From: an uncultured archaeon
Lineage (GTDB): Archaea > Thermoproteota > EX4484-205 > JAAOZP01
NCBI GenBank assembly: GCA_938045545.1
Contig: CALIBN010000043.1
Span: forward strand, 1 to 29,977
DNA: 29,977 bases
Direction of reading: 5' to 3'
Below, piece by piece: positions 149-29,977 of this stretch (within the stretch, counting starts at the first letter, position 1; each line of letters begins with the position of its first letter). The position numbers were made by a program, and so were the translations under genes. The notes beneath the pieces are model-generated. The model was given only the letters and a program-made list of their open reading frames with translations, did no database searches and was not told where the DNA came from.

Positions 149-160
149 TAGCGCGCACTA
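149..160. repeat. Intergenic RY pseudo-palindrome copy
   Basis: TAGCGCGCACTA, overlapping the AKR stop codon. Confidence 0.55.
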
Positions 161-1168
161 CTCGTAAACCATGTTGCGTGGCCCAAGTATCTCGTCTATA
201 GCTTTCATCTGGCTTGGCTTAAGTGGCCCGTATTCCAAGGCTTTAGCATTCTCCTCTACTTGCTTCACTGTTTTAAAGCCGGGTATCGGGATGTTCATCG
301 GGGATTTAGCCCAGATCCAGCCTATGGCTCCCTGAACGAGCGTTCTCCCGTCTTCCATCAGTATCTGCCTTATCTGCTCAAGCTTTTTAACATACTCTGG
401 CGTGGGCTTCCCGTTCTTGAAGTAGACTAGCCAGCTTGGCGTGGATTTCCGGATGTCGTTATAAGGCAGGCTCGGAGAGTCCAGCGTGTATTTGCCTGAG
501 AGAAGCCCCATTGCCAGGGGTCCACGGTTTATGTTGGCCAACTGTTTTTCTTCGCAGAGCCCTATGATTTCGCTCGCAACTCTTAAAACGTTCAGCTCGC
601 TTTCAACAGCCACGAAGCGTTTACGGTCGGCGAAAGCGGCTGCACGGCTTGTTGAATCGGTGCTCCACCCGTAGCCTCGAATCAAGCCTTCATCAACGAG
701 ATCCTCAAGCGTGTCCATGGTTGCAGCCGCCTTTTCAACAGGATACCCCCATATGTGGAGCAGGTAGATGTCTATGTAGTCTGTTCTCAGCCTTTTAAGC
801 GAGGCTTCAACCGCTTTCCGGGCGTACTGTGGAGAACCGTCCTCACCCGTCTCCCGCCTCGTTTCAGGGTCGAAGGTTAATCCAAACTTGGTTATGATCA
901 CTATTTCGCCACGGTGTTCTCCCAGTGCCTCTCCAATAAGTTTCTCACTGCGGCCGCAGCCGTAGACGTCAGCAGTGTCGAAAACCCTTACCCCGAGCTC
1001 GAAAGCCCTCTTCAAAGCTCTTAGAGACTCCCTGTCATCAGTTTCCCCCCAGCCGTGAGCAAGCCCGTCAGACCCTGTGATAGGCCCTCCGATAGCCCAT
1101 GTTCCAAGCCCTAGAGCACTAGTCTCAACATTCAGCTTCAAAATCCTTCTCTTGTAGAGTCTTACCAT
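158..1168 (-). CDS. Aldo/keto reductase
   Basis: Motifs LGLGTWAIGG, FDTADVYG (catalytic D/Y), IITKFG, SLKRLRTDYIDIYLLH, PLAMGLLSGK and IPIPG. ATG at 1168 is preferred over 1177 because TATAAATA (minus strand, 1198-1191) lies 23-30 nt upstream. Confidence 0.95.
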   Translation of the reverse strand: MVRLYKRRILKLNVETSALGLGTWAIGGPITGSDGLAHGWGETDDRESLRALKRAFELGVRVFDTADVYGCGRSEKLIGEALGEHRGEIVIITKFGLTFDPETRRETGEDGSPQYARKAVEASLKRLRTDYIDIYLLHIWGYPVEKAAATMDTLEDLVDEGLIRGYGWSTDSTSRAAAFADRKRFVAVESELNVLRVASEIIGLCEEKQLANINRGPLAMGLLSGKYTLDSPSLPYNDIRKSTPSWLVYFKNGKPTPEYVKKLEQIRQILMEDGRTLVQGAIGWIWAKSPMNIPIPGFKTVKQVEENAKALEYGPLKPSQMKAIDEILGPRNMVYE

Positions 1169-1300
1169 GCGCTTCATCGCATCCCAATCTTATTTATAGT
1201 TTTCAGAAATACGGTAAGCCTTTGACACGAGTTTTTGATAAATTTGGGCTCGCTTAAGCTTAACCCGCAGCCCTTCTGTAATAAGCTTCAGCGCTTCCCC

Positions 1301-2014
1301 CTAGAGCTCAACCGGCATGTCTGGGTTATAGAGCTCCACCGCTTTGCGACCCGGTTCATAATGGGCTCCAATAGCCCTTATCTCAACACCTACCCTATCT
1401 GCTTGTTTCAGTAGTTCCGCTATCTTAGGATCGCCCTTTCTGTATGGCCTGAAAGCCTCAACTTCCGGCAGAGCAGCCATGAAGAGCATAATCGCCCTCT
1501 CCCCGCTTTTAGCCAATTTCATAAGTTCCATTATGTGTCTGCGTCCCCTTTCAGTTGGGCAATCGGGATAAGCTGCGTATGTTTCACTCTCTCTAAGCAC
1601 CGCACTCTTGATCTCAAGATAGGCTTTACTATCGCTCTTTAACAGTAAGTAGTCGATCAGGGAACCGCCCACTTTCACGTTTCTTTTAACCACCTTATAG
1701 TTGAGGAGCCACTTCAGAGCGTTCTTTTGCAAGCTTGCCTCGAAGGCTTTAGTCTGAAAAGCAGTATCTATAAGCGCTCCCAAACCCTTATCTGATATAG
1801 CGAATAGCCTGCAGTCAGTCTTATTTCCTTCAGAAGTGCAAAACCCCTTCCTCCCTCTTACAATATACTCTTGAAGCCTGCCTGTGTTGTTAATGTATGC
1901 CCTCAACTTTCTACCTTCAGCTGTGACGACCACTACGAACCTGTTTACTCGTTTCTCTATGGTGCATTTAAACGGGTTTTCGACGTTGAACAGCATAACA
2001 GGGTTCAAACCCAT
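1301..2014 (-). CDS. sfsA: DNA/RNA nuclease SfsA (sugar fermentation stimulation protein family)
   Basis: Motifs RVNRFVV, NNTGRLQE, IDYLL...YLEIKS (PD-(D/E)xK), YPDCPTERGRRHI and GVEIRA. Confidence 0.93.
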   Translation of the reverse strand: MGLNPVMLFNVENPFKCTIEKRVNRFVVVVTAEGRKLRAYINNTGRLQEYIVRGRKGFCTSEGNKTDCRLFAISDKGLGALIDTAFQTKAFEASLQKNALKWLLNYKVVKRNVKVGGSLIDYLLLKSDSKAYLEIKSAVLRESETYAAYPDCPTERGRRHIMELMKLAKSGERAIMLFMAALPEVEAFRPYRKGDPKIAELLKQADRVGVEIRAIGAHYEPGRKAVELYNPDMPVEL

Positions 2015-2354
2015 TACGTTACTTGTTAAACGGAGCTGTTAAGGTTTTATGCTGTCCAGGGCTTTCTTTTAAACTTGAAGCTTGGAACGGAATGTTGACG
2101 CTGAAGCTATTGAGGCCTGCTTAGAACCTATTCTTCGCTGGCTGAGAATTTTTCCCTCTAAAGCGATTAAAAGAAGGATGTTCCTCTAGACTATGCGCGT
2201 GATACTTTGCTTTTTTGCTAAGGGTATGTGGGGAAGGAGTTTAAGAGTGCCTGGAGACTAGGATTCCTTCACGGAGGCGTTGGCTTACGTTTCTAAGCAC
2301 ACTAATAGTTTAACATGCTCATGGATACTTTTTTGGCTGAGAACCTGCGTTTGC

Positions 2355-3275: not shown

Positions 3276-3448
3276 GTTTTTACATAATGTTGTTTTCAGA
3301 TAAAAAGGTTTTCTTATAAGAAAATTATTGAAATTGGCGCTTAAGAATATATTTAAGAGGTATTACGCGGGGCACGTTGGAAAAAGCTTAGGGAAAGGTT
3401 TAACCGGCTTTCCAGAAACATATTAACCGCGCACGTCAGCCCCACATA

Positions 3449-3645
3449 CTACCGTTCAACAGGCACTGGAACCGGGTTACGCTCATACTTAACCCATTTC
3501 ACCGGGTCGCTGCCGCCAGCGTGGCAAACCGCCTGCGGAAAAAGGCTGCTGAGCCATATCTAGTAGTGCACGCTTTCCTCGTCGTCTTAATGGAAACATG
3601 GTGAGCCCCCAGTAGAGGGTGTGGTGTCGCTGAAAAACCCGTCGA
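3449..3645 (-). pseudogene. Remnant of a five-bladed beta-propeller glycosidase (GH32/GH43/GH130-like blade)
   Basis: Manual minus-strand translation gives GSPCFH*DDEESVHY*IWLSS...AVCHAGGSDPVKWVKYERNPV, resembling the A-x-S-x-D-x-x-x-W-x-K-Y-x-x-N-P-V blade repeat. It contains internal stops. Confidence 0.5.
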
Positions 3646-3772
3646 AAGGCCTATAGTGAACATGCTTCATACTTGGTGGCCACAGCCGGAGAAGACGGGT
3701 TGACTCGCATAAGCCTTACAGCTGGAACAATCGTCCTGTTAACTAGGGATTCGAGAATCACTGGACTATGGT

Positions 3773-4861
3773 TTAGAAGGCTGGCGTGGAAGCTTCGCAT
3801 TCTTCAAAGCTGCCGTAAAAATCCATATATCTTTCTATAGAGTTGCAGAGCGCATCCACGTTCTGCAGAGGGACATCCGGATAGATTCCCGCCGTCAACA
3901 TGAGGCCCCCCTTCTCCGAGCCCAGTTCAACTATGCTGCTCCTAATATGCTCATCTATTTCCCTCGCCGTCCCGAAGGGTAGGAGATACTGCCTATCAAT
4001 ATCCAGGTCTATGCAGATCCTGCCCTTTATTCTCCTCTTTATGTTTAGCAAGCCGTTAACCCTGTCCTGAAGGTTTAACACTGAAACACCAGACTCGATC
4101 AAGTCGTCAACCACCTCCATGACGTGCCCGTCAGTATGCAGGTAAACCCTCGCCCCAGCCTCCCTTATCCTGCGGAACATCCTGCGGTAAGAAGGGAACA
4201 CTAGTTTTCTGAACTTCTCCCTGCTTATCGGCATCCTATCCTGCAGGCCCAAGTCGTCCCCGAAAGTAACCAGGTCAACACCCATTTTAAGCACCCTTTC
4301 AATCAGCTCAAGATTGTACCGTGTCAGCCTTTCAATAAGCTCGTAGAGCTGAGGAGGCTCGACGAGGAAATCCTTCATAAGGTTCGTGAAACCCCTCAGG
4401 TAGTGAAGCCTCATGAAGAAGAAGCCGTGTGGAAAACCGACGATTGCAACCTCACCCCTCTCCTTCGCTGATTTAACTGAGGCCTCGATCTCCTCCCAAG
4501 GCTGCGGCGGACTGTGGGTGCCGGCTATGCCTTTGTCCACGTTCGGGATAACCATTTTATCCAGGTTGCTCCAGTCTTCAAGCGGATGCTTCACAACCTG
4601 GCCCTCCAACCCGTCGATTTTGAAAGTCCAAACACAGCCCCACTCGTCCACCACCGTGTTCCCCTTCCTATGCGTGCCGAAATCGTCGAAATCCACAGAC
4701 CCCTTTCTGAAACCTGGGAAAATCTTAGGATGCCTGGTCAAAACATCTTCGAGACGCTCCCTGTACTTATGCCATGTTGCTTGAATAATGGCAACGTTTG
4801 AAGGAACAAAGCCGCATCCATCTAGATCAATCACCTTCAGCAGGACTTTTTTAAACGGCAT
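3773..4861 (-). CDS. Uroporphyrinogen decarboxylase/MtaA-CmuA (URO-D-like) family protein
   Basis: Motifs VDEWGCVW, HPLEDW, LRGFTN, GDDLG, LHTDG, LPFGT, GGLML and VPLQNV. TATA-like CTTTTATAG on the minus strand near 4886-4894. Confidence 0.9.
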   Translation of the reverse strand: MPFKKVLLKVIDLDGCGFVPSNVAIIQATWHKYRERLEDVLTRHPKIFPGFRKGSVDFDDFGTHRKGNTVVDEWGCVWTFKIDGLEGQVVKHPLEDWSNLDKMVIPNVDKGIAGTHSPPQPWEEIEASVKSAKERGEVAIVGFPHGFFFMRLHYLRGFTNLMKDFLVEPPQLYELIERLTRYNLELIERVLKMGVDLVTFGDDLGLQDRMPISREKFRKLVFPSYRRMFRRIREAGARVYLHTDGHVMEVVDDLIESGVSVLNLQDRVNGLLNIKRRIKGRICIDLDIDRQYLLPFGTAREIDEHIRSSIVELGSEKGGLMLTAGIYPDVPLQNVDALCNSIERYMDFYGSFEECEASTPAF

Positions 4862-5188
4862 TGCTCGGCGGAATAGTCAAGAGAACTATAAAAGAGTATC
4901 GCATGCGACGCATGCCTGTTAAGCAGAGGATTATCCGGACGGGAAGCATACGGATTGGTTGAAAGAGCCCGATTGCAAGATAGCCTTGCTCCCGCTGAAT
5001 AATGGTGGAAGACTTATACTTCAGCGCCCATTCGTCTTGAAGCCAGCTGGCAGCGGGGAGGCAAGCCTTTCTATGCCGTAGAGAACAGTATGCCCGGCCG
5101 GTGGAAGAGGGACGGTGCCTCCTCCAGCCTAAACCCGTGGTCTTTAAAGAAACGTTAGGAATGCTTTTAAGGAAGAAGCGTCAAAGAT

Positions 5189-5743
5189 TTGCGAATGTGG
5201 CGCTGGAAACGCGGTAGAAAGAAGGACTCCTCAAGCATTAGCAGAGACTCCTTCGCCAAGTGGGCGGGCGAGTGTGTGAAACTAGTCGACGAGAAGACTG
5301 GCGTGAAGCTCGACTACAGCCTAGAATCCCTTAAGAACCTTGACGCTGTAGTAAGCAGGCTGAAGCCGGAGGACCCTGGGGAGTTTCAGAGCGAACTGCT
5401 CGGAGCCTACATTGTTTTAACCGGAAGCTACCTTGGCGAGGTGCTCGTTAGAAGCCGCGGCGGGAAGTGGGAGAAAACCGGCTCCCCCCTGGGCTGGGCG
5501 GTGAAGCTGGGCGTTAGAGAGATAGATGTTTTCCAAATCGCTTTCGAAAGCGTTTCCCAGCCCGACAGGTTCAGCAGGCTACACTCGGAGCTGGATTCAA
5601 AGGGGGAACAGGCAGGAGGTATGCCCAGGGTTCTTTCAGAGCTTGAGGAGCTAATAGTTAAAGGGTATACTTCGGAGATTGAGGAGCCTAAGAAGAAAGA
5701 GCCGTTGCCTTGGGAAACCCTGGAGGAGGATTACGAATACTGA
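5189..5743 (+). CDS. Hypothetical protein (DUF3806-like helical domain)
   Basis: LDYSLESLKNLD...GSYLGEVLV...GGKW pattern. Start uncertain (TTG 5189 or ATG 5195). Confidence 0.7.
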   Translation: MRMWRWKRGRKKDSSSISRDSFAKWAGECVKLVDEKTGVKLDYSLESLKNLDAVVSRLKPEDPGEFQSELLGAYIVLTGSYLGEVLVRSRGGKWEKTGSPLGWAVKLGVREIDVFQIAFESVSQPDRFSRLHSELDSKGEQAGGMPRVLSELEELIVKGYTSEIEEPKKKEPLPWETLEEDYEY

Positions 5744-5807
5744 CTGCGTTTCACCCAGTTAAAAAACCCTTAAAGCTTTTAAAAACCTCTTTCAACCGGT
5801 GAGGCAA

Positions 5808-6287
5808 ATGCCTTTGAAACTAGACCCGGATAGTGCGCTAAACCATCTGCCGCAGCCCCTTGTGATAGTTACTGCGGGAGACTTTGAGAAACCCAGCCGG
5901 AGAGGAGGAATGACTGCAGCATGGGTCAGCAGAGTATCCATGAGCCCCCCGCTAATAATGGTTTCAATCGCCCCTTCAAGACACACGTTGGAGCTCGTCA
6001 AGGAAAACGGTGAGTTCGCAGTCAACATAGTCGGGGGAAGGCTTGAGAAGGCTGCTTACGGCATCTTCGGCTCCAAGACGGGCAGAGGGCTGGACAAGAT
6101 TGCTGAAAGCAGAGTTAAAGCCAGGAGAGGGGAGAAGACAAGAGCCCCAATACTTGAGGACGCGACCGTATCGTTGGAGTGCAGGCTTGTTAAGACGGTG
6201 GAAGCAGGGGATCATATTCTTGTAATTGGTGAAGTGGTGAATGCTTTAAAGTTCAGCGACGAGCAGCCGATCGTCTTAACCCCCTAG
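5808..6287 (+). CDS. Flavin reductase family protein
   Basis: Motifs PQPLVIVT, GMTAAW, VSMSPPLIMVSI, GEFAVN, LECRL and GDHILVIGEV. TTTTAAAA at 5777-5784 fits ATG 5808. Confidence 0.95.
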   Translation: MPLKLDPDSALNHLPQPLVIVTAGDFEKPSRRGGMTAAWVSRVSMSPPLIMVSIAPSRHTLELVKENGEFAVNIVGGRLEKAAYGIFGSKTGRGLDKIAESRVKARRGEKTRAPILEDATVSLECRLVKTVEAGDHILVIGEVVNALKFSDEQPIVLTP

Positions 6288-6363
6288 GGTAACAGACAAT
6301 GCTTTACGCCATCCAGGGTTTCCTTCGAAGAAGCGTCGTAAACTTATAAGCGTGTTTCACATT

Positions 6364-7041
6364 ATGAGCAGCGTGCTGAAAATAGGCCACAGGGGAGCGA
6401 AATTCTACGAGCCGGAGAACACGCTGCGCAGTTTCAGGAAAGCATTGGAGCTTGGCGTTGACGCTGTGGAGCTTGACGTTAGGAGAACAAGGGACGGTGA
6501 ACTCGTGGTTATTCACGACGCGGGGGTTGAGAGAACCACGAACGGGAAGGGACTGGTGAGAGACCTCACGTTGAAAGAGATAAGGAGGCTTGACGCTGGA
6601 AAAGGAGAGAAGATACCCACCTTAGAAGAGGCTCTTGACTTCCTAGACGGGAAGGTAAAGATACTGATAGAGCTGAAGGAAGAAGGCTTTGAGGAGGAAG
6701 TGTTGAAATTGGTTCGTGGAAAAAGGTTGGAGAAGAACGTGATAATCATATCCTTCTTAGAGGACGCGTTGAGAAGAATAAGGCAGCTTGACAAGGATGT
6801 TGAAACCGGGTTGATCTATGTTAGACACGAAAACCCTGTTGAAGCAGCCCTGGAGCTGAAGGCGAACTACCTGCTGCCACAGTACCGTTTCGCACACTCT
6901 GCTTTAATCAAAAGGGCGCGTGAAAACGGATTGAAAGTGATCGTTTGGACGATAAACGATGAGAAGGAGGCTTCCGAGTACGCGGGGAAAGGGGTTGACG
7001 GCATAACTAGCGATAAGCCGGATATTCTTAAGGCGGTGTGA
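6364..7041 (+). CDS. Glycerophosphodiester phosphodiesterase
   Basis: Motifs IGHRGA, PENT, VELDVRRTRDG, VVIHD, IPTLEE, IELK, VWTIN and GVDGITSD. Start could be 6352, 6364 or 6373. Confidence 0.95.
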   Translation: MSSVLKIGHRGAKFYEPENTLRSFRKALELGVDAVELDVRRTRDGELVVIHDAGVERTTNGKGLVRDLTLKEIRRLDAGKGEKIPTLEEALDFLDGKVKILIELKEEGFEEEVLKLVRGKRLEKNVIIISFLEDALRRIRQLDKDVETGLIYVRHENPVEAALELKANYLLPQYRFAHSALIKRARENGLKVIVWTINDEKEASEYAGKGVDGITSDKPDILKAV

Positions 7042-7193
7042 GCATCATCGAAACACGAGTAGAACCGTGTTCGGAAAAGCAGCTCAGCAGCGCGAGATAC
7101 GCTTAACGTGCGCCATCATACTTAAGCTGAGAAACATTCGGCGAAAAGAAAGATTAACGATGCTGACAGACTGTTAGAATGCTTTCTTAAAGG

Positions 7194-7548: not shown

Positions 7549-7560
7549 TAGCGTGCGCCA
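7549..7560. repeat. Intergenic RY pseudo-palindrome copy
   Basis: TAGCGTGCGCCA. A near-identical TAACGTGCGCCA lies at 7104-7115. Confidence 0.55.
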
Positions 7561-7727
7561 GAGTAGAGGACGCTACCGTAGTCCGGGTCCCCGTCGTCAA
7601 GACCAGGCTCGGGAAAACATTGCAGAGGCTTAAAAGCATTGTTTACGCTAGATCTATTTTTATAGATTTCAAACGCTTTTCACCGGCCGTCTAAGGCTGA
7701 AAAGACCATGTCGTAGCCATTCGCGCA

Positions 7728-8411
7728 CTACCAGAAGACCTTTTTCTTAGCCTGCATCTGCTCCATTAGTTTCGCAACCAGGCTGCTGAGAACATATGAG
7801 ATGCCGAGGGCGAACCCTCCGAAATAGGTTAAACCTGATCCGGCGAGAAGATTATCCCCGTAGTTGTTCCACCAGTTCCAGAAGACATGTAGAGACATGG
7901 GGAGGAAAACATTCTTGTAGCGCACCTGGCATACTGCTGCAATAATTCCGAACAACAGGGGCCAGAGGAAGCCGCCGAGCCCATAGTGGAAGAAGTGAGT
8001 CAGTGCGAATACTAGGCTGCTCACGGATATTGCTAGGGAAGTATCTATTTTCGCCAGTGTGGAAAGCAGAAGCCCTCTGAAGAACCATTCCTCGAGGAGG
8101 GGGAGAATGAGGATTCCGCAGGCAGGGGTGAAAGATTCTAAGAGGAAAACCGTCGGCACGACGAAAAGCGCGGTAGTCAGGAATGTAAGCTGCTCCCCGC
8201 TCATGCTTCTCTGGAGACCGGTGGAGGCTCTTATCTGACTACCCATTAGGAGCATGGGGATGAATGAGGAGAAGACAATGATCAGTGTAAGCTCGAGGAC
8301 CCGCTGCTCCAGGTACTGGGTGAATCCGACAGTCTGCAGAATGAGAAGCCAGAAGACAAACAGGTTGATAACACTAGCCAGAACCCTCCACTGTCTTAAC
8401 CCCTGGTCCAC
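7728..8411 (-). CDS. CPBP (CAAX/Abi) family intramembrane glutamic/metalloprotease
   Basis: EEWFFRG, FALTH and HVFWN motifs within a hydrophobic protein. Confidence 0.92.
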   Translation of the reverse strand: MDQGLRQWRVLASVINLFVFWLLILQTVGFTQYLEQRVLELTLIIVFSSFIPMLLMGSQIRASTGLQRSMSGEQLTFLTTALFVVPTVFLLESFTPACGILILPLLEEWFFRGLLLSTLAKIDTSLAISVSSLVFALTHFFHYGLGGFLWPLLFGIIAAVCQVRYKNVFLPMSLHVFWNWWNNYGDNLLAGSGLTYFGGFALGISYVLSSLVAKLMEQMQAKKKVFW

Positions 8412-9700: not shown

Positions 9701-9823
9701 GTTTAGAATGCTTAGTGAACGCTAAAAAGCGGATTGGAACAGGGTGGGAGACGTTAGACCAGTGGGGAACAGTTATTTAGCTTAGCCGGGCAGTTCTCAG
9801 ACAGTAAAAGACGGTGGTCAGTC

Positions 9824-10500
9824 ATGATAGGGCCGGTTCACGGTCTCGCAGGATACTTGGTTGCCTACGCTGCTCTAACAAGGCTTAGGAGCAACGGGCC
9901 CCGCGACGGCGTGCTTGCAGCCATGCTTGGAGTAGCTCCCGACGTTGACTACGCTTCCCCGCTTCCGTTCGGCACGCCTCTCGGACACCACGGGCTGACT
10001 CATTCACCATCCCTGCTGATTCTGGTTTCCACGCCTTTTTCGCCAAGCACGGGTTGAAGGCTTCACCATACTTCTTAGCACTCATGTCGCACATCATGCT
10101 TGATTTTATTGACAACACTGTCCCCCTGCTGGCACCGTTCTCCTGGGAGGAATACGGGTTGAACCTCGCGTTCTCACACCCGTTTGCAGCTTATTGTCTG
10201 CAACTAGCCATAACAATGGTCTCAGCGTACGTTATTTTAAGGAAACCCGGTTGTCTCGCAATATCTCTACCCGACAAGTACGATAGGCTTGCGACGCCCG
10301 CCCTAGCGGTATGCGTACCCGCCTCCCCGTTCATACTCTGGTTCTTACACGAGGAGTCTGAGCGGTTTTTCGGCTACCCGCTGCATGCTTACCCCATAGT
10401 GTTCGTCACCCTAGCATTATCCTCGGCGCTCATTCTCCTGATCCTGGCGCTGAACAGCAGGCTCCTAGCTAGGAGAATCCTGAAACAGAAGACTCTTTGA
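9824..10500 (+). pseudogene. Metal-dependent membrane hydrolase (YdjM/LexA-binding family), split by one frameshift
   Basis: First frame has VHGLAG, APDVD and HHGLTHS; second frame has SHIMLD. Adding one T to the T5 run at 10036-10040 joins them (..TPFFAKHGLKASPY..). May be a sequencing error. Confidence 0.85.
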
Positions 10501-10784
10501 TAAACAGGATTTTTAAAGAGCAACTGCGGGCCTTAGACGGGCTTCCGCGGCTCAGCCTTTTAATCTATGCTGACTGAGGCTTGCAGCCATAAAGATCATT
10601 CTGCTTCTAGAAGTGTTGAGGACTAGAAACCTGTTCTCCATGTTGACTGTGCTGCATGAAAGGTTCAGGAGCGTTGAGGGTGGAAACTGGACGGAAGGGT
10701 TTAGACGGTATCTTTTCGAAAAACTGGGGGAGCAGCTGGAGACCAGTGGTTAAAGCTTTAAAACATAAAATAATGTGCAACACT

Positions 10785-11333
10785 ATGAATAAGGTTCAGA
10801 GGAGGGTTCTCAGGCTTGAGCTTGCGGGAGCAGTTTTCATAATCCTACTGGGGAGCATGCTGCACTTCACCTTCGAACTTTCCGGGCGCAACCCGGTTGT
10901 CGGAGTTTTCTCCGCCGTCAACGAAAGCGTCTGGGAGCATTTGAAGCTGGCCTACTGGCCGGCAGTAGCATACATGGGGGTTGAGCACAGAAGGTTGAAG
11001 ACTGTCAGCAGCTTTCTAACAGCTAAAGCCATCGGGATCTGCCTTACGCCAGTTATTATCGTCTCGTCATTCTACGCTTACAATGTTTTCATCGAGGAGA
11101 ACCTTCTGCTGGACATTGTGATTTTCATCGCCGCCGTAGTAACCGGGCAGCTGGCAAGCTACAGGCTTATGACGAGGGAAAACCTAGGTGCCTACGGGAG
11201 GATCAGCCTGATCGCCCTGGTCTCAATGGCTATTGTTTTCACGGTTTTCACCTTCCACCCGCCTAAGCTAGAGGTTTTCCGGGACCCTGTGAGCGGCAAC
11301 TACGGGTTTCAGGGTTTTAGCAAGCCGGGCTAA
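10785..11333 (+). CDS. DUF6512-like membrane protein
   Basis: GSMLHFTF...NESVWEHLKL signature, several TM segments and C-terminal PP...F.DP..G.YG. CTTTAAAA at about 10756-10763 supports ATG 10785 rather than 10656. Confidence 0.8.
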   Translation: MNKVQRRVLRLELAGAVFIILLGSMLHFTFELSGRNPVVGVFSAVNESVWEHLKLAYWPAVAYMGVEHRRLKTVSSFLTAKAIGICLTPVIIVSSFYAYNVFIEENLLLDIVIFIAAVVTGQLASYRLMTRENLGAYGRISLIALVSMAIVFTVFTFHPPKLEVFRDPVSGNYGFQGFSKPG

Positions 11334-11348
11334 GCCTGGAGACAGGTG

Positions 11349-11360
11349 TAGCACGCACCA
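11349..11360. repeat. Intergenic RY pseudo-palindrome copy
   Basis: TAGCACGCACCA, 15 nt after the DUF6512-like stop. AGGTGTAGCACGC (11344-11356) recurs exactly at 26943-26955. Confidence 0.55.
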
Positions 11361-12849: not shown

Positions 12850-12980
12850 CAGTCACCTGAGCTTAAGCTTGGCTGGCTTGCGCGCGCTTCCTCCAAGCCT
12901 GTATTGCACAGCCAGGTTAAGCGCAACCCTTGAGGTTTTCTTCGTCCGACCGAAGAATTCAACGTACGGGGTATATCAAC

Positions 12981-13038
12981 AGCATTCTCAGCGCGCGCAT
13001 AGCACAGTATGTTTGTGTCAAGCGCACGCTAGAATGCT
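12981..13038. repeat. Imperfect inverted repeat (hairpin) built from two copies of the intergenic RY motif
   Basis: Left arm AGCATTCT-C-AGCGCGCGC (12981-12998), right arm GCGCACGCT-AGAATGCT (13022-13038). 17 pairs, with one bulged C and one mismatch. Confidence 0.8.
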
Positions 13039-19398: not shown

Positions 19399-20188
19399 GT
19401 TCCCGATTCCCCGCCTGATGATTATGCTGGCCTCTTAGATAAGCATGCTGTTTTACGCTGGCGGAAACATGTTAAAGCCCGATGGCGCTTGTCCCAGGCT
19501 GAAAACACGCGTTTCCACCTAATGCCGGTTAAAACGTTCAGGGTTTAGGATTATTCTGGGGAATTCAGAGGCACCGGCGAGTAGGGAAGCTGAGAAAACA
19601 CTTGTTCTCGTCCTCACGCGTGCGTTCAGCCTGGCTGAAATCTCATTCCCTCCCGATATTCGTGAGCTAGGCTTAGATGAACACTCCGGCTCTTAGCCAC
19701 CTGAGGTGTAAAATTCCTCATCTCATCCCTAACCTTGTTAACAACATTTCACAACAGGACGCGCGCCGTTGGGATTGATTTATATTTAACCTATTCTGAC
19801 TCAGAAGGAATTCAGGAAGAACATATAATTGATTATGTGCGAATCCTCGTTAAGGGCCTCCCCTGAGCTGTTTAAGATATTACGTGCCCAAACCGTATAG
19901 CCGCTCTGTTAAATATTGGTAGTATTCCACAAGTAGGCGACTATTTTTCCGGCGGGCCGCGTTAGACCATCATTAAACCACCGTGGCTGCGGCATACTAA
20001 GACAAGCGGAATAGGAAGTCTTAGAGACAGCCAGCGTCACTCGAAGAAGCACGTGCAATGGCACGCTACACGTCAACCCAGTATTTCTCATAGTTGCTAA
20101 CAGCGGGTTTTCTTCCTTTCGAATGGCCTTGAAGCCTTATTTCTCAATAGTTTCATATGGTTCTCCAAGCCGCCAAGATACTTCTCGT

Positions 20189-20200
20189 TGGCGCGCGCTA
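20189..20200. repeat. Intergenic RY pseudo-palindrome copy
   Basis: TGGCGCGCGCTA, 14 nt after the AAA ATPase stop. Confidence 0.55.
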
Positions 20201-21558: not shown

Positions 21559-21583
21559 GGGGGCATGTTTTTAAACATCCCCC
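21559..21583. promoter_or_regulatory. Inverted repeat upstream of acr3 (candidate operator)
   Basis: GGGGG-C-ATGTTT-TT-AAACAT-CCCCC. Confidence 0.45.
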
Positions 21584-21640
21584 ATGCGCGCCAATGACGC
21601 TGGGAAACCATAAATCTTCGTAGAAAGCTTTTAAAGAGAA

Positions 21641-24915: not shown

Positions 24916-26702
24916 GGCTGAGGGAGGAGCAGCTTTTCGACGACATTGACGGAAGGTTCCAGGCCAGGGTTAGGACGCATGGAACCTCCTTCCTGAAGAC
25001 ATCCATAAGGGGCACGGAGGTTACGCTTAGAAGCTCGACTGCGACGCTTGAAACAAGGTTCAACATGCTTGTTCTCGACAAGCTTCACTCACCCTCCTTC
25101 GTAGGGATTGAGCGGCCAACCGCGTCAAACCCCAAGACGTTCCTGATTTACGAGGTTATAGGGGTTAGGGCGACGCACCTGCAGGAGCTTGGCGTAAGAG
25201 TATCCATGCCCGGGGTGCTTAGGGAAGAGTTCCTACAGACGATTGAGAAAGACTGGGAGACGGCGAGGGAGAACTGGATAGACGTCGTCGCAGCGCCCAC
25301 AGGCTACCTGGCCAGGGTTGTCAACGGCATTGTGGAGTTTGAGAAGACGACAATAAGCCCGCTCACAGGTAAGCAGGCGCACCTCCTTTCGAAAGAGGCT
25401 GTGGAAGCATTCGTATGCGTCGAAAACGGGGCGGAGGTGGGGAGGCTAATGGGGCTGAACGTGCCTGTGACCGCTAGGATAGACGCCATGATAAGGTATC
25501 ATACTGGAGTGTTCGGCTTCACGGGGACAGGCAAGTCTAACCTGACCTCGACGCTGGTTAGGAAGGCTGTTGAAACAGTTGAAGGCCTGCGCGTAGTCGT
25601 CTTCGACGTCGCGGGAGAGTACGTTGTAAACCTGCTGGACCTTCTGGAAGACGGCTTAGTCTACACGACTGAGAGGGGGGCTGTTGAAAACGTTGAGGAA
25701 TTCGTGAGGTCTCAGACAATTCCTGAGTCGCTCGAGGAGGAATTGGGGGCGGAGAGGATAGAGAAGGCTTTAAGAACGCTTCACGAGGACGGAAGGGTCC
25801 GCCGGCTGGTTTTAACCGAGCCGAGCAGGATGGAAGTATTGGTGGAGGATGTTTTGAACTTCCTAGGCTCGATCGTAAGCTCGGAAAGACCCGGAGCGTT
25901 CGCGGCGAAAATAGCCCTTGGGAGGCTGGTGAGCTTCATTGAGGAGAACGGCATCAGGGATACGGATAGGCTGCTCAACGTGGCTGCTGACCCCAGGAGG
26001 GCCGAGGCTTTTCGAAGCATTCTCAAGGAGTTCGGAGAAGAGTTGCACGGAATGTCGTCTGAGGCGAAGACTGTGAACACGATTCTAAGGGTCTTGGAGA
26101 ACCCTCGAGAGATAACGAGCGTCAGGAGAGAGGCTGCGGTGAACCCTGAGCGGCTGGCTGAGCTCACCCTGGGCGAGGAGGCTCCACGCCTAACCATAGT
26201 CTATGCTCCAGACCTCGTTGAGGCGAGGAAGGCGGTGTCACGATACGTGGACCGCCTGCTCGAGTTGAAGAAGAAGGGCTTCTCCCGCGTCAACGTTTTA
26301 ACCGTGCTCGACGAAGCCCAGGAATTCGTCCCGGACAAGGCGAGAAAAGAGGATGCTACGGAGCAGTCTAACACGGCTGTTGAAACCCTTCTGAGGCAGG
26401 GCAGGAAGTACAGGGCGGGCTGCTGGCTGAGCACGCAGAGAGTCGCCCACCTTAACGTTAACGCTCTGCAGCAGCTACACACGTATTTCACGAGCACGCT
26501 TCCAAGGTCCTACGACAGGATGGTTATAGCTGATGCCTACTCGCTCGACTACGAGGTTGTCAACAGGGTTGCTGAGCTCGACACCGGGGAATGGATGTTC
26601 GTCTCGTACAAGGCGACGAAAAGGAGAAACGTCCCGGTTTTCATAAGCACGCCCAACAACGAGCAGAAAATCGTCGAGCACGTTAAGAAGCTTACGCTAT
26701 AA
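24912..26702 (+). CDS. herA: HerA/FtsK-superfamily ATPase (DUF87)
   Basis: HTGVFGFTGTGKS (Walker A), VVVFDVAGEY, LTVLDEAQEF (Walker B), RQGRKY (Arg finger) and LSTQR. Beta-rich N-terminal HAS-barrel-like region. GTGA start/stop overlap with nurA, preceded by GGAGG. Confidence 0.9.
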   Translation: MRLREEQLFDDIDGRFQARVRTHGTSFLKTSIRGTEVTLRSSTATLETRFNMLVLDKLHSPSFVGIERPTASNPKTFLIYEVIGVRATHLQELGVRVSMPGVLREEFLQTIEKDWETARENWIDVVAAPTGYLARVVNGIVEFEKTTISPLTGKQAHLLSKEAVEAFVCVENGAEVGRLMGLNVPVTARIDAMIRYHTGVFGFTGTGKSNLTSTLVRKAVETVEGLRVVVFDVAGEYVVNLLDLLEDGLVYTTERGAVENVEEFVRSQTIPESLEEELGAERIEKALRTLHEDGRVRRLVLTEPSRMEVLVEDVLNFLGSIVSSERPGAFAAKIALGRLVSFIEENGIRDTDRLLNVAADPRRAEAFRSILKEFGEELHGMSSEAKTVNTILRVLENPREITSVRREAAVNPERLAELTLGEEAPRLTIVYAPDLVEARKAVSRYVDRLLELKKKGFSRVNVLTVLDEAQEFVPDKARKEDATEQSNTAVETLLRQGRKYRAGCWLSTQRVAHLNVNALQQLHTYFTSTLPRSYDRMVIADAYSLDYEVVNRVAELDTGEWMFVSYKATKRRNVPVFISTPNNEQKIVEHVKKLTL

Positions 26703-27053: not shown

Positions 27054-28391
27054 ATGACTGTTAAAATAACAGTGATAGGCGCAGGCAGCCTTGTTTTCAC
27101 CCCCAATATTCTTGCCGACATTGCTAAGTCGAGTGTCCTCGCCGGCTCTGAAGTCTGCCTTATGGATGTTGATGAGGAGAGACTTGGTTTGATGGCTAAG
27201 CTTGCTGATAGAATAGTGCGTGAAAAGAAGACGGATATCGCCGTTGACACGACCACGGACAGGGTTGAAGCCTTGAGAAACGCTGACTACGTGATCATCT
27301 CAATATCTGTGGGCACTGATGTTGAAAGGCTCGACGTTGAAATACCGGTGAAGCATGGTTTATACACGCCTGTCGGCGATACTACTGGGCCGCAGGGTTT
27401 TGCAAGAGCGCTTAGACACATCCCGGTTATGGTGGATATCGCTAAGGATGTTGAAAAAATCTGTCCGAGTGCCTACGTGCTTAACGTGACTAATCCGATG
27501 ACCGCGTTGTGCACAGCTATGCTTAAGGCCTCGAGGATAAACCTCATCGGGCTTTGCGGCGGAATATATTCGGCGAAAAGCTTCATCGCCAGGTTTCTAA
27601 ACGTGGATCCTGAGGCTGTAAGCGTGATTGCGGGCGGGATAAACCACTTCACATGGATAAAAGAGATGTTTGTTAGGGGCGAGAAGGCCTATCCCAGGTT
27701 TAGAGAAGCCTGGGAGAACGCTAAGAGGAAATACGGTGAAACTGAGATGCTTGAAAAATTCAGAGGCCACTACGTATCCCTGCTCTTGTACGATAAGCTT
27801 GGGCTCCTCCCCTCGCCGTCGGACTCCCACATAGCTGAATTCCTACCATTCTTTATAAGAGAGGAAAGGTCTTACGGCGCCTCCTATGGTTTAACACTCT
27901 ACCCGGAGGGGACGATATATGATCCCGAGTGGCGTGAGGAAGCCTGGTCGCAGCTGGTTAAATGGGCGGTCGGCGGGGCTCCGTTGGACGAGTTGTTTGC
28001 AAGGACGTTCACGGAGGAAACGCTTGTAATCAGGGTGCTTGAAAGCCTAGCCTCTGACCGCGACGATTTCTACGAGGCGGTGAACGTCCCGAACATGGGG
28101 TCTATCCCGGATATTCCGGGCGACGCTGTGGTCGAGGTTCCCGGGGTTGTTGGCAATATTGGGGTTAAGCCTGTTCAAGTCGGCCCGCTTCCGGAAGCGA
28201 TTACAATGTTTCTGAGACAGCAGCTTACGCACGTAGGTTTAACTGTTGACGCAGCTTTAACCGGGGACCGTGGGCTTGCGCTGCAAGCATTGTTAACCCA
28301 TCCTTCAACGCCGACTTTAGAGGCCGCTGAAAACATTCTTGACGACCTGATACGCTACGAGGCTAAGTATCTTCCAAAGTTTAAAGGTTAA
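27054..28391 (+). CDS. Family 4 glycoside hydrolase (NAD+/Mn2+-dependent, alpha-galactosidase/glucosidase-like)
   Basis: Motifs KITVIGAGSLVF, ALRNADYV, GDTTGPQG, LNVTNPM, GLC, GINHFTW, DSHIAEF, NVPNMG and VVEVP. Alternative start at GTG 27045. Confidence 0.93.
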   Translation: MTVKITVIGAGSLVFTPNILADIAKSSVLAGSEVCLMDVDEERLGLMAKLADRIVREKKTDIAVDTTTDRVEALRNADYVIISISVGTDVERLDVEIPVKHGLYTPVGDTTGPQGFARALRHIPVMVDIAKDVEKICPSAYVLNVTNPMTALCTAMLKASRINLIGLCGGIYSAKSFIARFLNVDPEAVSVIAGGINHFTWIKEMFVRGEKAYPRFREAWENAKRKYGETEMLEKFRGHYVSLLLYDKLGLLPSPSDSHIAEFLPFFIREERSYGASYGLTLYPEGTIYDPEWREEAWSQLVKWAVGGAPLDELFARTFTEETLVIRVLESLASDRDDFYEAVNVPNMGSIPDIPGDAVVEVPGVVGNIGVKPVQVGPLPEAITMFLRQQLTHVGLTVDAALTGDRGLALQALLTHPSTPTLEAAENILDDLIRYEAKYLPKFKG

Positions 28392-29590
28392 CAGCCTACA
28401 GGGTAGTCTGCCAGACGCCTCCAAGCCTCCAACACCGCCTCTATGCTCTCCCAAGGAGTGTCTGGAAATATTTGGTCTATCGCCGACAATATGAACCCTC
28501 CCCCGGGAGCGAGTATTCCAATAGCTTCCGCAACCGCCTTCTCGATCTCCCCTCTGGACCATTGGGTCAGCGTGACTGACGAGTTTAAGCCTCCCCATAT
28601 GCATATCCTGTCTCCGACCTGCTTCTTAACCTCGTGCAGCTTCGCCCCGCCTTGAACAGGGTCCACACCGTAGAGAACATCCACCCCGGCTTCTTTAAAG
28701 AAGCCTAGAAGAGGCATTATGCCGGTGGACATTATGTAGCAAAACTTGAGCCCATGTTTATGAACGTAGTCAGCCAGCCTTTTAACATAGGGCAGAATAA
28801 ACCTGCTGTAGAGCCTCGGCGGCCAGAAATCAGCGTTCTCATACCATCCGCGGTGAACCACGAGGTCCACCGCACCAGTCTCCACGGCCAGCCGTATATA
28901 CCTAACGTCCCATTCAAATATCACGTCCAGTATTCTCTGGATGAACTCCGGCTTAAAATAGGCGGCTTTAACAGTGTTTTCAAGGCCGCAGAGCCAGTGC
29001 AGCGCGTCTGCGCCGACGACTCCGCCCTCAACCCCCTTCTCAGAGGTCATGCCGGCTTCAACCAGGACACCGTGCTCGTCTGCGAAGCTTTTAACCCTGT
29101 CGGCTTCCTGAAGGAAGGCTTCGAGCTCCCTGTCTGAAGGCTCCGCGAGAAGGCTGGAGAGAGCGTCTAAATCCTCCTCTTTCTCAACGAGAAACTTTAC
29201 GGAGCGGGCTCTCGGGACAACGAAATCCGTGAAGAGAGGAATATCGTCGCCATGCGGCCAATCAGGCGTTTGACGCACAACACGCTTGAGAACACCCTTG
29301 GCAGTATGATACTCTTTCACGATGAGCGGGTATTTTTCTCCAGCCGGATGAACCTTGCTAACCCTGGTTTCAACCTCCGGGTTGAGTGAAACAGGGACTT
29401 TCAAAGTAACGGTGTCATCCATCCCAAGCTTCAAAAGTTTGGGGACGCGTTCAAACTCGCTGCGCCAAGAGTCGCCCTCATCCACCAAGTAGGGCCGCTC
29501 CCACCATTTGAAGCATAATGGAACATGGTCGGGCTCCTTCAGGCTCATAGCTGTTAAGAGGCGCTCCCTCGAACTCAACTCCACCCTCAA
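28388..29590 (-). CDS. URO-D-like (uroporphyrinogen decarboxylase/methyltransferase fold) protein
   Basis: SSRERLLTAM...PDHVP N-terminus, GVDPVQG, ICIWGG, GGGFILS and TPWESI. Stop overlaps the convergent GH4 stop in GTTAAC. Confidence 0.88.
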   Translation of the reverse strand: MRVELSSRERLLTAMSLKEPDHVPLCFKWWERPYLVDEGDSWRSEFERVPKLLKLGMDDTVTLKVPVSLNPEVETRVSKVHPAGEKYPLIVKEYHTAKGVLKRVVRQTPDWPHGDDIPLFTDFVVPRARSVKFLVEKEEDLDALSSLLAEPSDRELEAFLQEADRVKSFADEHGVLVEAGMTSEKGVEGGVVGADALHWLCGLENTVKAAYFKPEFIQRILDVIFEWDVRYIRLAVETGAVDLVVHRGWYENADFWPPRLYSRFILPYVKRLADYVHKHGLKFCYIMSTGIMPLLGFFKEAGVDVLYGVDPVQGGAKLHEVKKQVGDRICIWGGLNSSVTLTQWSRGEIEKAVAEAIGILAPGGGFILSAIDQIFPDTPWESIEAVLEAWRRLADYPVGC

Positions 29591-29692
29591 CTTAAATACT
29601 TCAACAAGATTTAGAAAGACTCTTTAAAACTTTAAACAAAACTCTAGAGTTCATATTTAAACTGCACGCTAAGGGGGTTGACGCATGCAATC

Positions 29693-29890
29693 TCAGAATG
29701 AGGCAAATATTCTTAAGGAAGGTAAAACCGGCCTTTGATCCTTCTTGAGCAGAGTAACCACTACCTTCACGCATTCATCGTGATTAACGATAATATGCAT
29801 ATTTCTAACGAGTTCATCAAGGCCCAGCCCATGCGAAATCATTTTCTCAAAGGGGAATGGCCTGAATATTTCTTCATCAGCCTGATAACT
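29693..29890 (-). pseudogene. C-terminal remnant of a zinc-type alcohol dehydrogenase (MDR family)
   Basis: VIRLMKKYSG, then after a frameshift FPFEKMISHGLGLDELVRNM...ECVKVVVT. This matches the ITH-x-x-x-L-D-E...KVV tail of MDR dehydrogenases. No intact upstream frame. Confidence 0.55.
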
Positions 29891-29977
29891 CTCCCCCGCC
29901 TATTTCCGCGCGCTACTCCCAGTATTCTTGCCAACATCGGAGTCGAGTGTACTCGCCGGCTTAGAAGCTTGTTCCAA

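Follow-up and report, generated by a model that had tools for sequence, protein, structure and literature searches.

Why does a 12-bp alternating purine-pyrimidine pseudo-palindrome recur along a contig of a hot-spring archaeon, concentrated between genes? The window, i.e., the whole stretch of DNA analysed here, comprises 29,977 nt of CALIBN010000043.1 (GCA_938045545.1, forward strand) from an uncultured archaeon (EX4484-205; JAAOZP01), represented by a Brockarchaeota MAG of 2.03 Mb (G000). The initial annotation had listed 19 strings, all 19 of which are present where it placed them, and had read them mainly as a genome-wide binding site or a Z-DNA-prone element. The underlying unit is the perfect palindrome TAGCGCGCGCTA, with the general form TA(GC)nTA (n = 3-6, most often n = 4), and no published description of such tracts was found in the literature. 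We give about an even chance to the explanation that the tract is a junction scar or filler of an undescribed break-rejoining process and not a gene-expression signal.

Coding and non-coding counts are based on crude gene calls (the longest ORFs with a minimum of 90 aa, together 84% of the genome). With these calls the strict form TAGCRYRYGCTA occurs 15 times in non-coding DNA of the 2.03-Mb MAG and never in coding DNA. Copies with up to two mismatches number 76 in the non-coding part, where 9.0 (order-1 Markov) or 5.6 (order-3) are expected, versus 25 in the five-fold larger coding part. GCGCGC reaches 3.6 times its Markov expectation in non-coding but only 0.5 times in coding DNA, and the control hexamers GGCGCC and CCGCGG show no enrichment in the same MAG. 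The genome-wide excess over a Markov background (76 versus 6-9) is thus real, and the cores are scarce in coding sequence, as had been noticed by eye. In the window alone, six copies with up to two mismatches (149, 7549, 12878, 13020, 20189, 29904) were found versus 0.97 expected, and none of 100 shuffles reached six. Because the excess at up to three mismatches is weak (17 versus 11.2; 5 of 100 shuffles reached 17), the listed sites at 3427, 19757, 21582, 29660 and 29679 and the three 10-mers are indistinguishable from chance by sequence alone. Site 7719 has four mismatches, yet it is backed by comparison with relatives.

The tract has a defined size. GC-rich purine-pyrimidine runs in non-coding DNA have their maximum at exactly 8 bp (117 runs, versus 58 at 7 bp and 40 at 9 bp), and among the copies A precedes the core (-1) in 52%, with T following at +1 in 54% and A at +2 in 46%. 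Core positions 5-10 carry 46 transitions versus 15 transversions, so the predominance of transitions accounts for the alternation that the initial annotation had seen preserved. Among 15 perfect copies in G016, the flanks have nothing in common and reveal no larger unit.

The motif is limited to one subclade of the genus, with a maximum of 35 perfect copies per genome. Perfect copies are absent from 8 of 17 congeners and near zero in most of the 284 further genomes that were sampled across the phylum. G016 has 35 perfect copies, whereas G000 has 1 perfect among 76 near copies, and from their sequences the copies would differ in age, with young perfect ones in some genomes and decayed ones in others. 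Perfect copies were counted by length in G016, G008, G002, G007 and G006, in this order: n = 3 gives 10, 17, 16, 9 and 4 copies, n = 4 gives 35, 28, 26, 14 and 9, n = 5 gives 9, 4, 2, 0 and 0, and n = 6 gives 2, 0, 0, 0 and 0. For n = 2 the counts (22, 12, 20, 13, 11) show no excess over the reversed control (21, 23, 16, 14, 24). As an n = 2 excess of a few copies would hide in this background of about 20, the series is compatible with simple microsatellite slippage around n = 4.

Concerning gene expression, copies per kb amount to 0.47 in convergent, 0.37 and 0.33 in tandem and 0.31 in divergent spacers, and no preferred distance to stops or starts was found for the copies in the MAG. With the density the same in all spacer types, a role as promoter or terminator signal is not supported. 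That copies sit on or just after stop codons is correct for 149-160 and 7719-7730, which overlap the minus-strand stops of genes 158-1177 and 7728-8411, but it is not a general positional rule. Few sites lie in DNA alignable to 85-90% relatives (17 of 128 spanned, mostly coding DNA). This number, the origin of perfect copies in a decaying pseudogene and between two gene interiors, and the eight congeners that have no perfect copy do not sit easily with a conserved regulatory site.

The single sites of the window were compared with the related genomes. At the left end, TAGCGCGCACTA (149..160; one mismatch) provides with its CTA the stop (TAG, minus strand) of an aldo/keto reductase gene (158-1177); it is conserved in G006 with a different left flank, and in the Logan contig X3 a joint 68->147 ends 2 nt before it. 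TAGTGCACGCTT (3564..3575; three mismatches) lies in the spacer 3276-3772 beside a decayed gene fragment (about 3440-3560), and homology to G007 and G012 restarts at 3571-3574. Compared with G007 (gctta|cctcat), the 8 nt of the core ACGTGCGC are inserted in TAACGTGCGCCA (7104..7115; three mismatches), and in G010 the same spacer carries a 1.4-kb insertion terminating in TAGCGCGCACTA. TAGCGTGCGCCA (7549..7560; two mismatches; convergent spacer 7510-7727) has counterparts at the aligned position in G009 (TGGCGTGCACCG), G010 (TGACGCATGCCA) and G016 (TAGTGCATGCTA) and is an old copy, common to relatives as transition variants. ATTCGCGCACTA (7719..7730; four mismatches), which overlaps the stop of an Rce1-like gene (7728-8411, minus strand), is a junction copy: in X3, 2144 other letters replace 7723-7729, in X5 there are 401 letters between 7660 and 7730, G008 and L105 have TGGCGTGCGCTT and AAGCGCACGCTA, respectively, at this place, and G016, G002 and L102-L104 have five unrelated nt there. 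TAGTGAACGCTA (9713..9724; three mismatches), absent from the initial list, lies within a 60-nt stretch (9707-9768) whose counterpart in G002 and L104 is 257 nt long and unrelated.

Further to the right, TAGCACGCACCA (11349..11360; three mismatches) is located 15 nt past the stop of a DUF6512 gene (10656-11333), with orthologous copies in G009 (TAGCGCGCACTA), G006 (TAGCGCGAACCA) and G007 (AAGCGCGCGCTT, with an adjoining 16-nt indel). TTGCGCGCGCTT (12878..12889; two mismatches), 28 nt past the stop of an M20 peptidase gene, is 10 nt from a joint (12843-12866) at which a GNAT/wHTH gene was lost in the window and kept in G006, where the counterpart reads CTGCGCGCGCTT. An imperfect inverted repeat (about 12981-13038; fold of 12870-13040, z = -3.75) has as its inner arms the copies CAGCGCGCGCAT at 12989 and AAGCGCACGCTA at 13020 (12989..13031), both of which are kept in G006 with transitions. 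TGGCGCGCGCTA (20189..20200; one mismatch) lies 14 nt beyond the stop of gene 20215-21042 (minus strand); G009 does not have 19025-20206, and its joint retains only AGCGCG ahead of the shared gttaaaga. The weak copy CCATGCGCGCCA (21582..21593; five mismatches) marks the left edge of a segment (21586-23078) replaced in G009 and G007, and the replacement in G009 is bounded by TAGCGTGCGCTT on the left and by TAGAGCGCGCGCTA on the right, the latter abutting the restart of homology. TTCCGCGCGCTA (29904..29915; two mismatches) is upstream of gene 28388-29590 near the contig end. The weak copy GGACGCGCGCCG (19757..19768) is found 90 nt right of 19667, where close relatives diverge and where the loose ends of X3 and X5 start with GCGCGCGCAGAG and GCGCGCAGAG, respectively.

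Several copies lie at the joints of deletions. In G007 a 688-nt stretch (10448..11137 of the window) is lost, which comprises the 3' end of ORF 10054-10500, the spacer that follows and, from its 5' end, two-thirds of the DUF6512 gene. At the joint (G007:C12:141943-141954, ...gatcctggcTAGCGCGCGCTAgtagctgggc...) one perfect TAGCGCGCGCTA alone separates the interiors of two genes, which in the window lie 688 nt from each other. Another perfect copy is located at the left break of a deletion of ~390 nt (G009:C4:103245) whose lost stretch is kept in G000 and G007. Half or near copies accompany the loss of 2286 nt (ACGCGCT, G009:C4:17284), 632 nt (CAGCGTGCGCTA, G009:C4:137985) and about 200 nt (TAGCGCGC, G000 C12:130834), and deletions with full or half copies span 20-2286 nt; the direction of several events (deletion here versus insertion there) is based on one other genome only. 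Copies are also created by small replacements: a GNAT gene intact in G006 is frame-shifted in G016 and has a perfect copy there in place of ~20 nt of its interior, GGCTCC is changed to CGCGCGCT in L102 in comparison with L104 and G016, 20 nt are exchanged for TAACACGCGCT in G007, and 8 nt are gained at window position 7106. Between L102 and L104, which are 97-98% identical, a replaced segment terminates exactly at TAGCGCGCGCTC. The X3 and X5 contigs, about 95% identical to the window, break at 147, 7722/7730, 17293 and 19667, with loose ends ...TAGCACGCGCTAA at 17293 and GCGCGCGC... at 19667.

The association with junctions was also quantified. At 21 independent clean indel joints the half-motif was found in four, the 12-mer with up to three mismatches in three and with up to two in two, versus non-coding null rates of 2.7%, 1.9% and 0.69% (binomial tails 2e-3, 7e-3 and 9e-3, respectively). 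No resemblance to the tract was seen at 15 of these joints, and therefore the process is one of several or acts only sometimes. Of 33 informative comparisons with other genomes, which are partly non-independent as some sites were counted against two genomes, 25 lose homology at the site, versus 141 of 313 control non-coding positions (Fisher p = 6e-4), and an indel falls exactly at the site in 5 of 33 versus 7 of 313. From the range of interpretations offered initially, those of recombination or rearrangement and of a break-prone, Z-DNA-like element fit these data, as copies lie at indel and replacement junctions far more often than control positions do.

The link of copies to junctions, their de novo appearance in DNA that is dispensable, a length series and restriction to one clade are observed; that writing and rejoining are one event, that it proceeds by tails and that a dedicated enzyme exists, we infer. 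In one subclade of this Brockarchaeota genus, rejoining would write a short palindrome of alternating GC into the joint. The deletions that accompany it would range from 0 to about 2300 nt, and the boundaries of insertions and replacements would receive the tract as well. Each broken end would gain the same short tail, ~TA(GC)3, the model giving no reason for the TA start. The self-complementary GC repeats of two tails could pair in different registers and yield TA(GC)3-6TA, and a tailed end joined to an untailed one would give the half forms. Because an insert would wreck a reading frame, copies would persist only between genes and in pseudogenes, which would explain their intergenic concentration. 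Later decay by C>T and G>A transitions would retain the purine-pyrimidine alternation. When candidate enzymes were looked for in the genus, Ku was absent from all 17 genomes and Prim-Pol was present only in G002, and neither search yielded an enzyme for the proposed rejoining.

Some deletions end beside a pre-existing copy (window 12867 near 12878, a copy also present in G006; the G009 deletion ending at 20189), and these suit a break-prone site as well as or better than a scar. A tract that is Z-DNA-like or otherwise non-B, or is recognised by a nuclease or recombinase, would be a hotspot of double-strand breaks, and one-sided resection and rejoining would remove the adjacent DNA and leave a whole or half tract at the joint. 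A cut at the palindrome centre would produce half copies like those seen at joints (TAGCGCGC|flank, flank|GCGCACT), breakpoints lie exactly at tract edges in the close strains L102/L104, and the joint and homology-break statistics fit equally well. However, the origin of copies is left unaccounted for, as perfect ones arise between gene interiors or in a pseudogene where both end points are free of copies in relatives. In addition, small replacements generate the tract without a large deletion, and for Z-DNA at physiological torsion (GC)4 would be short. We consider this reading possible, at a chance well below even. It is unlikely that the tract is the footprint of a cut-and-paste element missing from the assemblies, one that duplicates a TA target, has GCGC termini and leaves TA-GCGC|GCGC-TA on excision. 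Tc1/mariner elements leave TA-flanked palindromic footprints, and the symmetry of the scar, the lack of target preference in the flanks, the occurrence in one clade, where copies look young in some genomes but decayed elsewhere, and the frequent absence of multi-copy elements from MAGs all suit it. However, the IS630/Tc1-type DDE_3 family is absent from 17 of 17 genus genomes (control genomes were positive), no long side of the 21 clean indels carries GCGC tips at both ends, and tracts are not in excess near contig ends (0.28 versus 0.22 per kb). Nearly all dated events pair the tract with flanking loss (20-2286 nt), and resection of an excision break would first remove element-derived tips. 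The sole repeated family seen in G000 non-coding DNA resembles, by eye, putative IS200/IS605 TnpB remnants, and these elements transpose without footprints.

A selected protein-binding site (chromatin, segregation, a global regulator, a methylation or uptake signal) kept intergenic by selection, the main inference of the initial annotation, is quite improbable. In its favour, the symmetry of a 12-bp palindrome is of the kind that suits a DNA-binding dimer, copy numbers run from tens to about 150 per genome, and variants persist at orthologous places in 80-90% relatives (7549, 11349). However, such a role accounts for none of the junction data, with perfect copies created at deletion joints and inside pseudogenes, and gene-poor decaying DNA is rich in copies (10 in 12 kb of G008:C4). 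The lack of start/stop and spacer bias, the 8 of 17 congeners devoid of the motif, the degradation of nearly all G000 copies and the absence of any Rfam match in the window also argue against it. Least probable of all, and highly so, are site-specific recombination sites bounding mobile gene cassettes, like integron attC or pdif modules. Copies sometimes lie on both sides of an inserted or replaced segment, as in the G009 replacement of 21586-23078 or around the G006 GNAT gene (TAGCACACGCTA and CTGCGCGCGCTT). However, the end points of the cleanest deletions are both without a copy in relatives, the GNAT deletion of the window does not run from copy to copy since it spared 25 nt at the 3' end of the gene, and recombinase sites are not known to look like half copies at joints or 12 bp without accessory sequence.

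Compared with known systems, the scar shares features with several. Like HIP1 (GCGATCGC) of cyanobacteria, it is a short GC-rich palindrome over-represented in one lineage without agreed function; HIP1, however, has thousands of copies within genes and between them, whereas the tract is excluded from genes (15 versus 0) and tied to junctions. Z-DNA and other non-B fragile sequences share the alternating CG tract at or next to which deletions end, but fragile tracts studied experimentally are longer and fragility does not explain new perfect copies. Excision footprints of Tc1/mariner/IS630 elements are similar TA-flanked short palindromes without flank preference, but the tract has neither a DDE_3 transposase (17 genomes) nor insertions with matching tips (21 indels) and accompanies flanking deletions and one-sided half forms. 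End-joining filler and N-/P-nucleotides (Ku/LigD NHEJ, polymerase-theta-type templated insertions, TdT in V(D)J joining) likewise add a few to about a dozen nt exactly at joints of variable deletions without a larger element. However, known fillers vary or copy nearby DNA, whereas the tract is one fixed palindrome in tens of copies per genome, and Ku was found in 0 of 17 genus genomes. Ogata and Miura reportedly observed that thermophilic DNA polymerases make short palindromic repeats in vitro without template or primer. Hyperthermophile polymerases can make TA- and GC-containing palindromic units untemplated, in vitro and as long tandem arrays. Such synthesis could supply a fixed self-complementary tail, but it leaves the restriction to one subclade of one genus unaccounted for, and its long arrays differ from the short tract. 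De novo telomere addition occurs at breaks and can be followed by head-to-head fusion, and bdelloid rotifers carry telomere-repeat scars. The host chromosomes are presumably circular and the cap would be only about 8 nt; the logic, however, would be that of the tail model, with like caps joined head to head giving a palindrome and a capped end joined to an uncapped one giving a half site.

The initial annotation had listed 19 strings of a 12-bp purine-pyrimidine pseudo-palindrome between positions 149 and 29915, and all 19 are present in the window where it placed them. The observation as a whole was confirmed and could be sharpened to the palindrome TAGCGCGCGCTA, which the consensus given there, TRRCGYRCGYYA, approximates. 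The motif was analyzed in the assembly that contains the window (G000; 2.03 Mb, 51 contigs, the window being contig C43), with genes called crudely as the longest ORFs of 90 aa or more, which cover 84% of the genome. Among the top 8-mers enriched outside these genes were GCGCGCGC (31 vs 7) and TAGCGCGC/GCGCGCTA (47 vs 14), together with AT-rich words resembling archaeal promoter boxes. In non-coding DNA the length of GC-rich purine-pyrimidine runs peaks at exactly 8 bp, and the flanks of the 8-bp runs prefer A at -1 (52%), T at +1 (54%) and A at +2 (46%), which together define TAGCGCGCGCTA, i.e., TA(GC)nTA with n = 4, as the unit. Its strict form TAGCRYRYGCTA occurs 15 times outside the gene calls and never inside them.

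The proposed intergenic enrichment held against a Markov background, as 76 copies with at most two mismatches were found outside genes vs 5.6-9.0 when the same DNA was simulated; the coding part, five times as large, contains 25. GCGCGC reaches 3.6 times the Markov expectation in non-coding and 0.5 times in coding DNA, and the other GC hexamers compared are not enriched. Within the window alone, six copies with at most two mismatches stand against 0.97 expected, a number reached by none of 100 shuffles. When three mismatches are allowed the excess is weak (17 vs 11.2), and therefore several of the weaker copies listed initially are indistinguishable from chance by their sequence. Core mismatches comprise 46 transitions and 15 transversions, so that the alternation of purines and pyrimidines is preserved as the initial annotation had noticed, and as alternating CG tracts the copies may be prone to form Z-DNA. 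The window itself encodes ordinary single metabolic genes on both strands; it contains no tRNA, and no Rfam match was obtained up to an E value of 1.

A role as promoter or terminator was not borne out by the positions of the copies. Their density per kb is equal across spacer types (0.47 in convergent, 0.37 and 0.33 in tandem and 0.31 in divergent spacers), and the distances to stops or starts are flat without a preferred value, gene starts being crude. With neither a spacer-type bias nor a fixed distance to gene ends, a transcription signal was rejected. Two copies (149 and 7719) overlap a stop codon, which is in both cases the TAG of the palindrome itself; a frame entering a copy would stop there with a one-in-three chance. 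A structured or known RNA was likewise rejected, since the fold of 3420-3585 is no better than that of shuffled sequences (z = -0.39) and Rfam gave no match. The fold of 12870-13040 reaches z = -3.75, and the two copies lying 31 nt apart at 12981-13038 form the inner part of an imperfect inverted repeat of ~17 bp (agcattctcAGCGCGCGC ... GCGCACGCTagaatgct). REP/RAYT elements, MITEs and other small repeats were discarded, as the flank composition equals the background beyond +/-2 in addition to the missing Rfam matches; 15 perfect copies of the congener G016 likewise share no flanks beyond the 12-mer. Pairs of copies as the borders of an element (3427...3564 and 12878...12989) were also considered and rejected, because the first appears to be a gene fragment in decay, whose paralogue lies in contig C15. 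In particular, the non-coding stretch 3440-3560 is ~74% similar to the interior of a gene on C15 (53691-55098) and probably represents such a fragment. Finally, an assembly artefact was rejected because copies recur with substitutions at orthologous places in MAGs and metagenome contigs of different records.

The motif is largely restricted to one genus. All 17 genomes of the genus contain the strict pattern, 1-54 times each, compared with 0-4 times in 24 relatives from outside the genus; the reversed control occurs 0-3 times. Nine genomes of the genus contain the perfect 12-mer (35, 28, 26, 14, 11, 9, 4, 1 and 1 copies) and the other eight have none. Among the other 284 sampled genomes of the phylum, only three have at least four perfect copies: G285 (12, with 4 for the reversed control), G105 (5) and G142 (4). 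Copies in G016 are mostly perfect vs a single perfect one among 76 near copies in G000, and for this reason the underlying process seems recent in certain lineages but old in that of G000. Perfect TA(GC)nTA tracts in G016, G008, G002, G007 and G006, in this order, number 10, 17, 16, 9 and 4 for n = 3, 35, 28, 26, 14 and 9 for n = 4, 9, 4, 2, 0 and 0 for n = 5 and 2, 0, 0, 0 and 0 for n = 6. For n = 2 there is no excess (22, 12, 20, 13 and 11, reversed control 21, 23, 16, 14 and 24), and since a small excess would vanish in this background, slippage around n = 4 is also possible. In G008 one 12-kb locus (L117; G008:C4:196000-208000) carries 10 palindrome copies vs 0.28 expected; its part from ~4800 to 11400 is gene-poor without any ORF above 177 aa, and this stretch looks like a graveyard of decayed genes.

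Syntenic DNA from eight congeners and from four metagenome contigs was aligned with the window, and copies were repeatedly located where homology breaks. In the cleanest case, G007 lost 688 nt (window 10448-11137), the interior of ORF 10054-10500 being fused to the interior of a DUF6512 gene, and the joint between the two gene interiors consists of a single perfect TAGCGCGCGCTA. Another perfect copy lies at G009:C4:103245, at the left break of a ~390-nt deletion, the stretch being kept in both G000 and G007, which polarizes the event. Further joints carry whole, near or half copies, namely ACGCGCT (2286-nt deletion), CAGCGTGCGCTA (632-nt deletion), TAGCGCGC (~200-nt deletion in G000 itself), CAGCGTGCACTA (loss of the SfsA gene in G007) and AAGCGCACGCTT (loss of ORF 16882-18096 in G008). 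One-sided forms at joints comprise 7-8 nt, either TAGCGCGC or, from the opposite flank, its complement.

A single gene was followed through several states of decay. It encodes a wHTH (DUF7347) and GNAT acetyltransferase protein of 290 aa (locus L001, 2316-3880). In G006 it is intact and follows the M20 peptidase gene, whereas G016 has it as a frame-shifted pseudogene and G009 in truncated form; from the window it was deleted, with ~25 nt of the 3' end left at 12843-12866. Inside this gene, G016 has a perfect copy in place of ~20 nt, and this copy would have arisen in dead DNA. Small changes were seen as well: GGCTCC was converted to CGCGCGCT in L102, whereas both its close-strain counterpart L104 and G016 have the older state, and at 7106-7113 the window has 8 nt inserted relative to G007. 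A replaced segment ending exactly at TAGCGCGCGCTC also distinguishes L102 from L104 (97-98% identical). Two metagenome contigs ~95% identical to the window (X3 and X5) break at 147, at 7722/7730, where X3 has 2144 letters instead of GCGCACT, at 17293 with a loose end finishing in TAGCACGCGCTAA and at 19667 with a loose end starting with GCGCGCGC. Three perfect copies of G016 were searched in five genomes; one lies where a member of a multi-copy family is cut off, with all hits ending at the first base of the tract, the second was aligned through in G002 and the third was uninformative. A 214-aa ORF of G016 (locus L049, 876-1520, from G016:C1) has no Pfam family and is a member of a multi-copy family with two copies in G000 and five in G007; the G016 copy is cut off exactly at a perfect palindrome.

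The association with junctions was also evaluated statistically. All pairs of adjacent collinear BLAST blocks between G000, G007:C12 (266 kb) and G009:C4 (156 kb) were listed in which the short side measured no more than 40 nt and the long side 200 nt or more. Of the 22 joints obtained in this way, 21 are independent, and their short sides contain the half-motif four times, the 12-mer with at most three mismatches three times and with at most two mismatches twice; at non-coding null rates of 2.7%, 1.9% and 0.69% the corresponding tails are 2e-3, 7e-3 and 9e-3. Fifteen joints have no resemblance to the motif, so most indels arise otherwise. In a second test, 94 non-coding copies were compared with 1166 control positions in non-coding DNA as to whether their 200-nt left and right flanks have adjacent homology in other genomes. 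Among the informative comparisons, a break in homology at the site was seen in 25 of 33 vs 141 of 313 for the controls (Fisher one-sided p = 6e-4, some sites being counted twice), and an indel exactly at the site in 5 of 33 vs 7 of 313; a further 155 comparisons for the copies and 2019 for the controls gave no information. DNA alignable to G007 or G009 contains only 17 of 128 sites, most of them in coding sequence.

Among the interpretations offered by the initial annotation, a recombination or break-prone tract thus fits, whereas a transcription or binding signal does not. A selected binding site would account for none of the junction data and is very improbable. That the tract is a break-prone or nuclease-targeted site is unlikely: two deletions do end beside copies already there (12878 and 20189), but others create the copy, and the origin of copies would be left unexplained. 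Symmetry and TA flanks would fit the footprint of a transposon, but this reading is quite improbable, since the transposase family DDE_3 (PF13358) had no match in 17 of 17 genomes of the genus (controls were positive in 5/14, and MAGs can lose IS copies), none of the 21 long sides of clean indels has GCGC tips at both ends, the 2144-letter insert of X3 at 7722/7730 does not extend the GCGC match, and there is no tract excess at contig ends. Moreover, the scars are accompanied by flank loss, which ranges from 6 to 2286 nt in the dated events, a plain gain of 8 nt being seen in one case only (window 7106). Least probable are cassette recombination sites of an attC or dif-module-like type, as relatives keep the 688-nt, 390-nt and 2286-nt stretches without a copy at either end point.

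The repeats and contig ends of G000 were inspected as well. Its main non-coding repeat family (C4 1-764, C24, C29, C2, C16 and C17) resembles, by eye, the 3' ends of IS200/IS605 TnpB genes with the right ends of these elements, and is unrelated to the motif apart from sharing long spacers. Contig ends show assembly overlaps only; the last 141 nt of the window (29837-29977) are identical to the first 141 nt of C39, into which C43 therefore continues. The short stretches 7281-7466 (within ORF 7198-7509) and 5420-5475 of the window recur with 70-88% similarity at several positions, unlinked to each other, in G000 and its relatives, and may represent paralogous small genes or a conserved motif.

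We put the chances at about even that the tract is the junction scar of an undescribed break-rejoining process. Each broken end would gain a tail of about TA(GC)3, and two such tails would pair over 6, 4, 2 or 0 nt and give n = 3, 4, 5 or 6, while a tailed end joined to a bare end would leave a half site. This model would account for both the length series and the one-sided joint forms. More tentatively, and with the odds rather against it, some uncultured archaea (Brockarchaeota here) may possess a lineage-restricted break-healing activity that caps ends with the self-complementary tail, so that any two ends could zip via a GC-rich microhomology that is paired at high temperature, a sequence-writing end-joining without Ku. 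Regarding the enzymes, a NurA-like gene (weak Pfam match) and a HerA-like gene (DUF87) form a pair at 23110-26702 of the window. The NurA-like gene was detected in seven of the 17 genomes, each of which bears tracts, but neither in G008 (28 perfect copies) nor in G010; in a Pfam search of the 17 genomes Prim-Pol was present only in G002. Judged from sequence, the pair is possibly involved in end processing, a weak lead with a pattern confounded by phylogeny. A full-text literature search retrieved the 12-mer in no paper, and the abstracts and listings retrieved on excision footprints, archaeal intergenic GCGCGCGC and filler DNA at archaeal deletion junctions contained nothing relevant. Ogata and Miura reportedly described in 1998 that thermophilic polymerases create palindromic repeats in vitro.

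If the tracts are written at rejoined breaks, they would reveal an archaeal route of DNA repair and rearrangement without a described enzyme and account for a striking peculiarity in the composition of these genomes. They would also provide a built-in marker of past deletions, insertions and gene decay, in which perfect copies are recent and transition-decayed ones old, useful for studies of genome reduction and flux in uncultured hot-spring archaea. Under the break-healing reading the scars would document which genes a genome lost and gained over time, and rearrangements could be dated and counted from them. Even if it were a fragile site or an unseen transposon's footprint, the tract would mark where these genomes break, and annotation pipelines should not treat these palindromes as terminators or binding sites.

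The tracts can be compared with three known systems. Footprints of Tc1/mariner/IS630 elements go along with a source element, occupied TA-flanked sites whose termini match the halves of the footprint, and intact flanks; here neither such an element nor such sites were seen, and the flanks are intact in the single case at window 7106. Site-specific recombination expects both partner sites before a deletion and one hybrid site afterwards, in difference to the joints described here. End joining by Ku and LigD requires Ku, for which PF02735 gave no match in 17 of 17 genomes; its filler DNA nevertheless resembles the tracts in that extra nucleotides are placed exactly at deletion joints.
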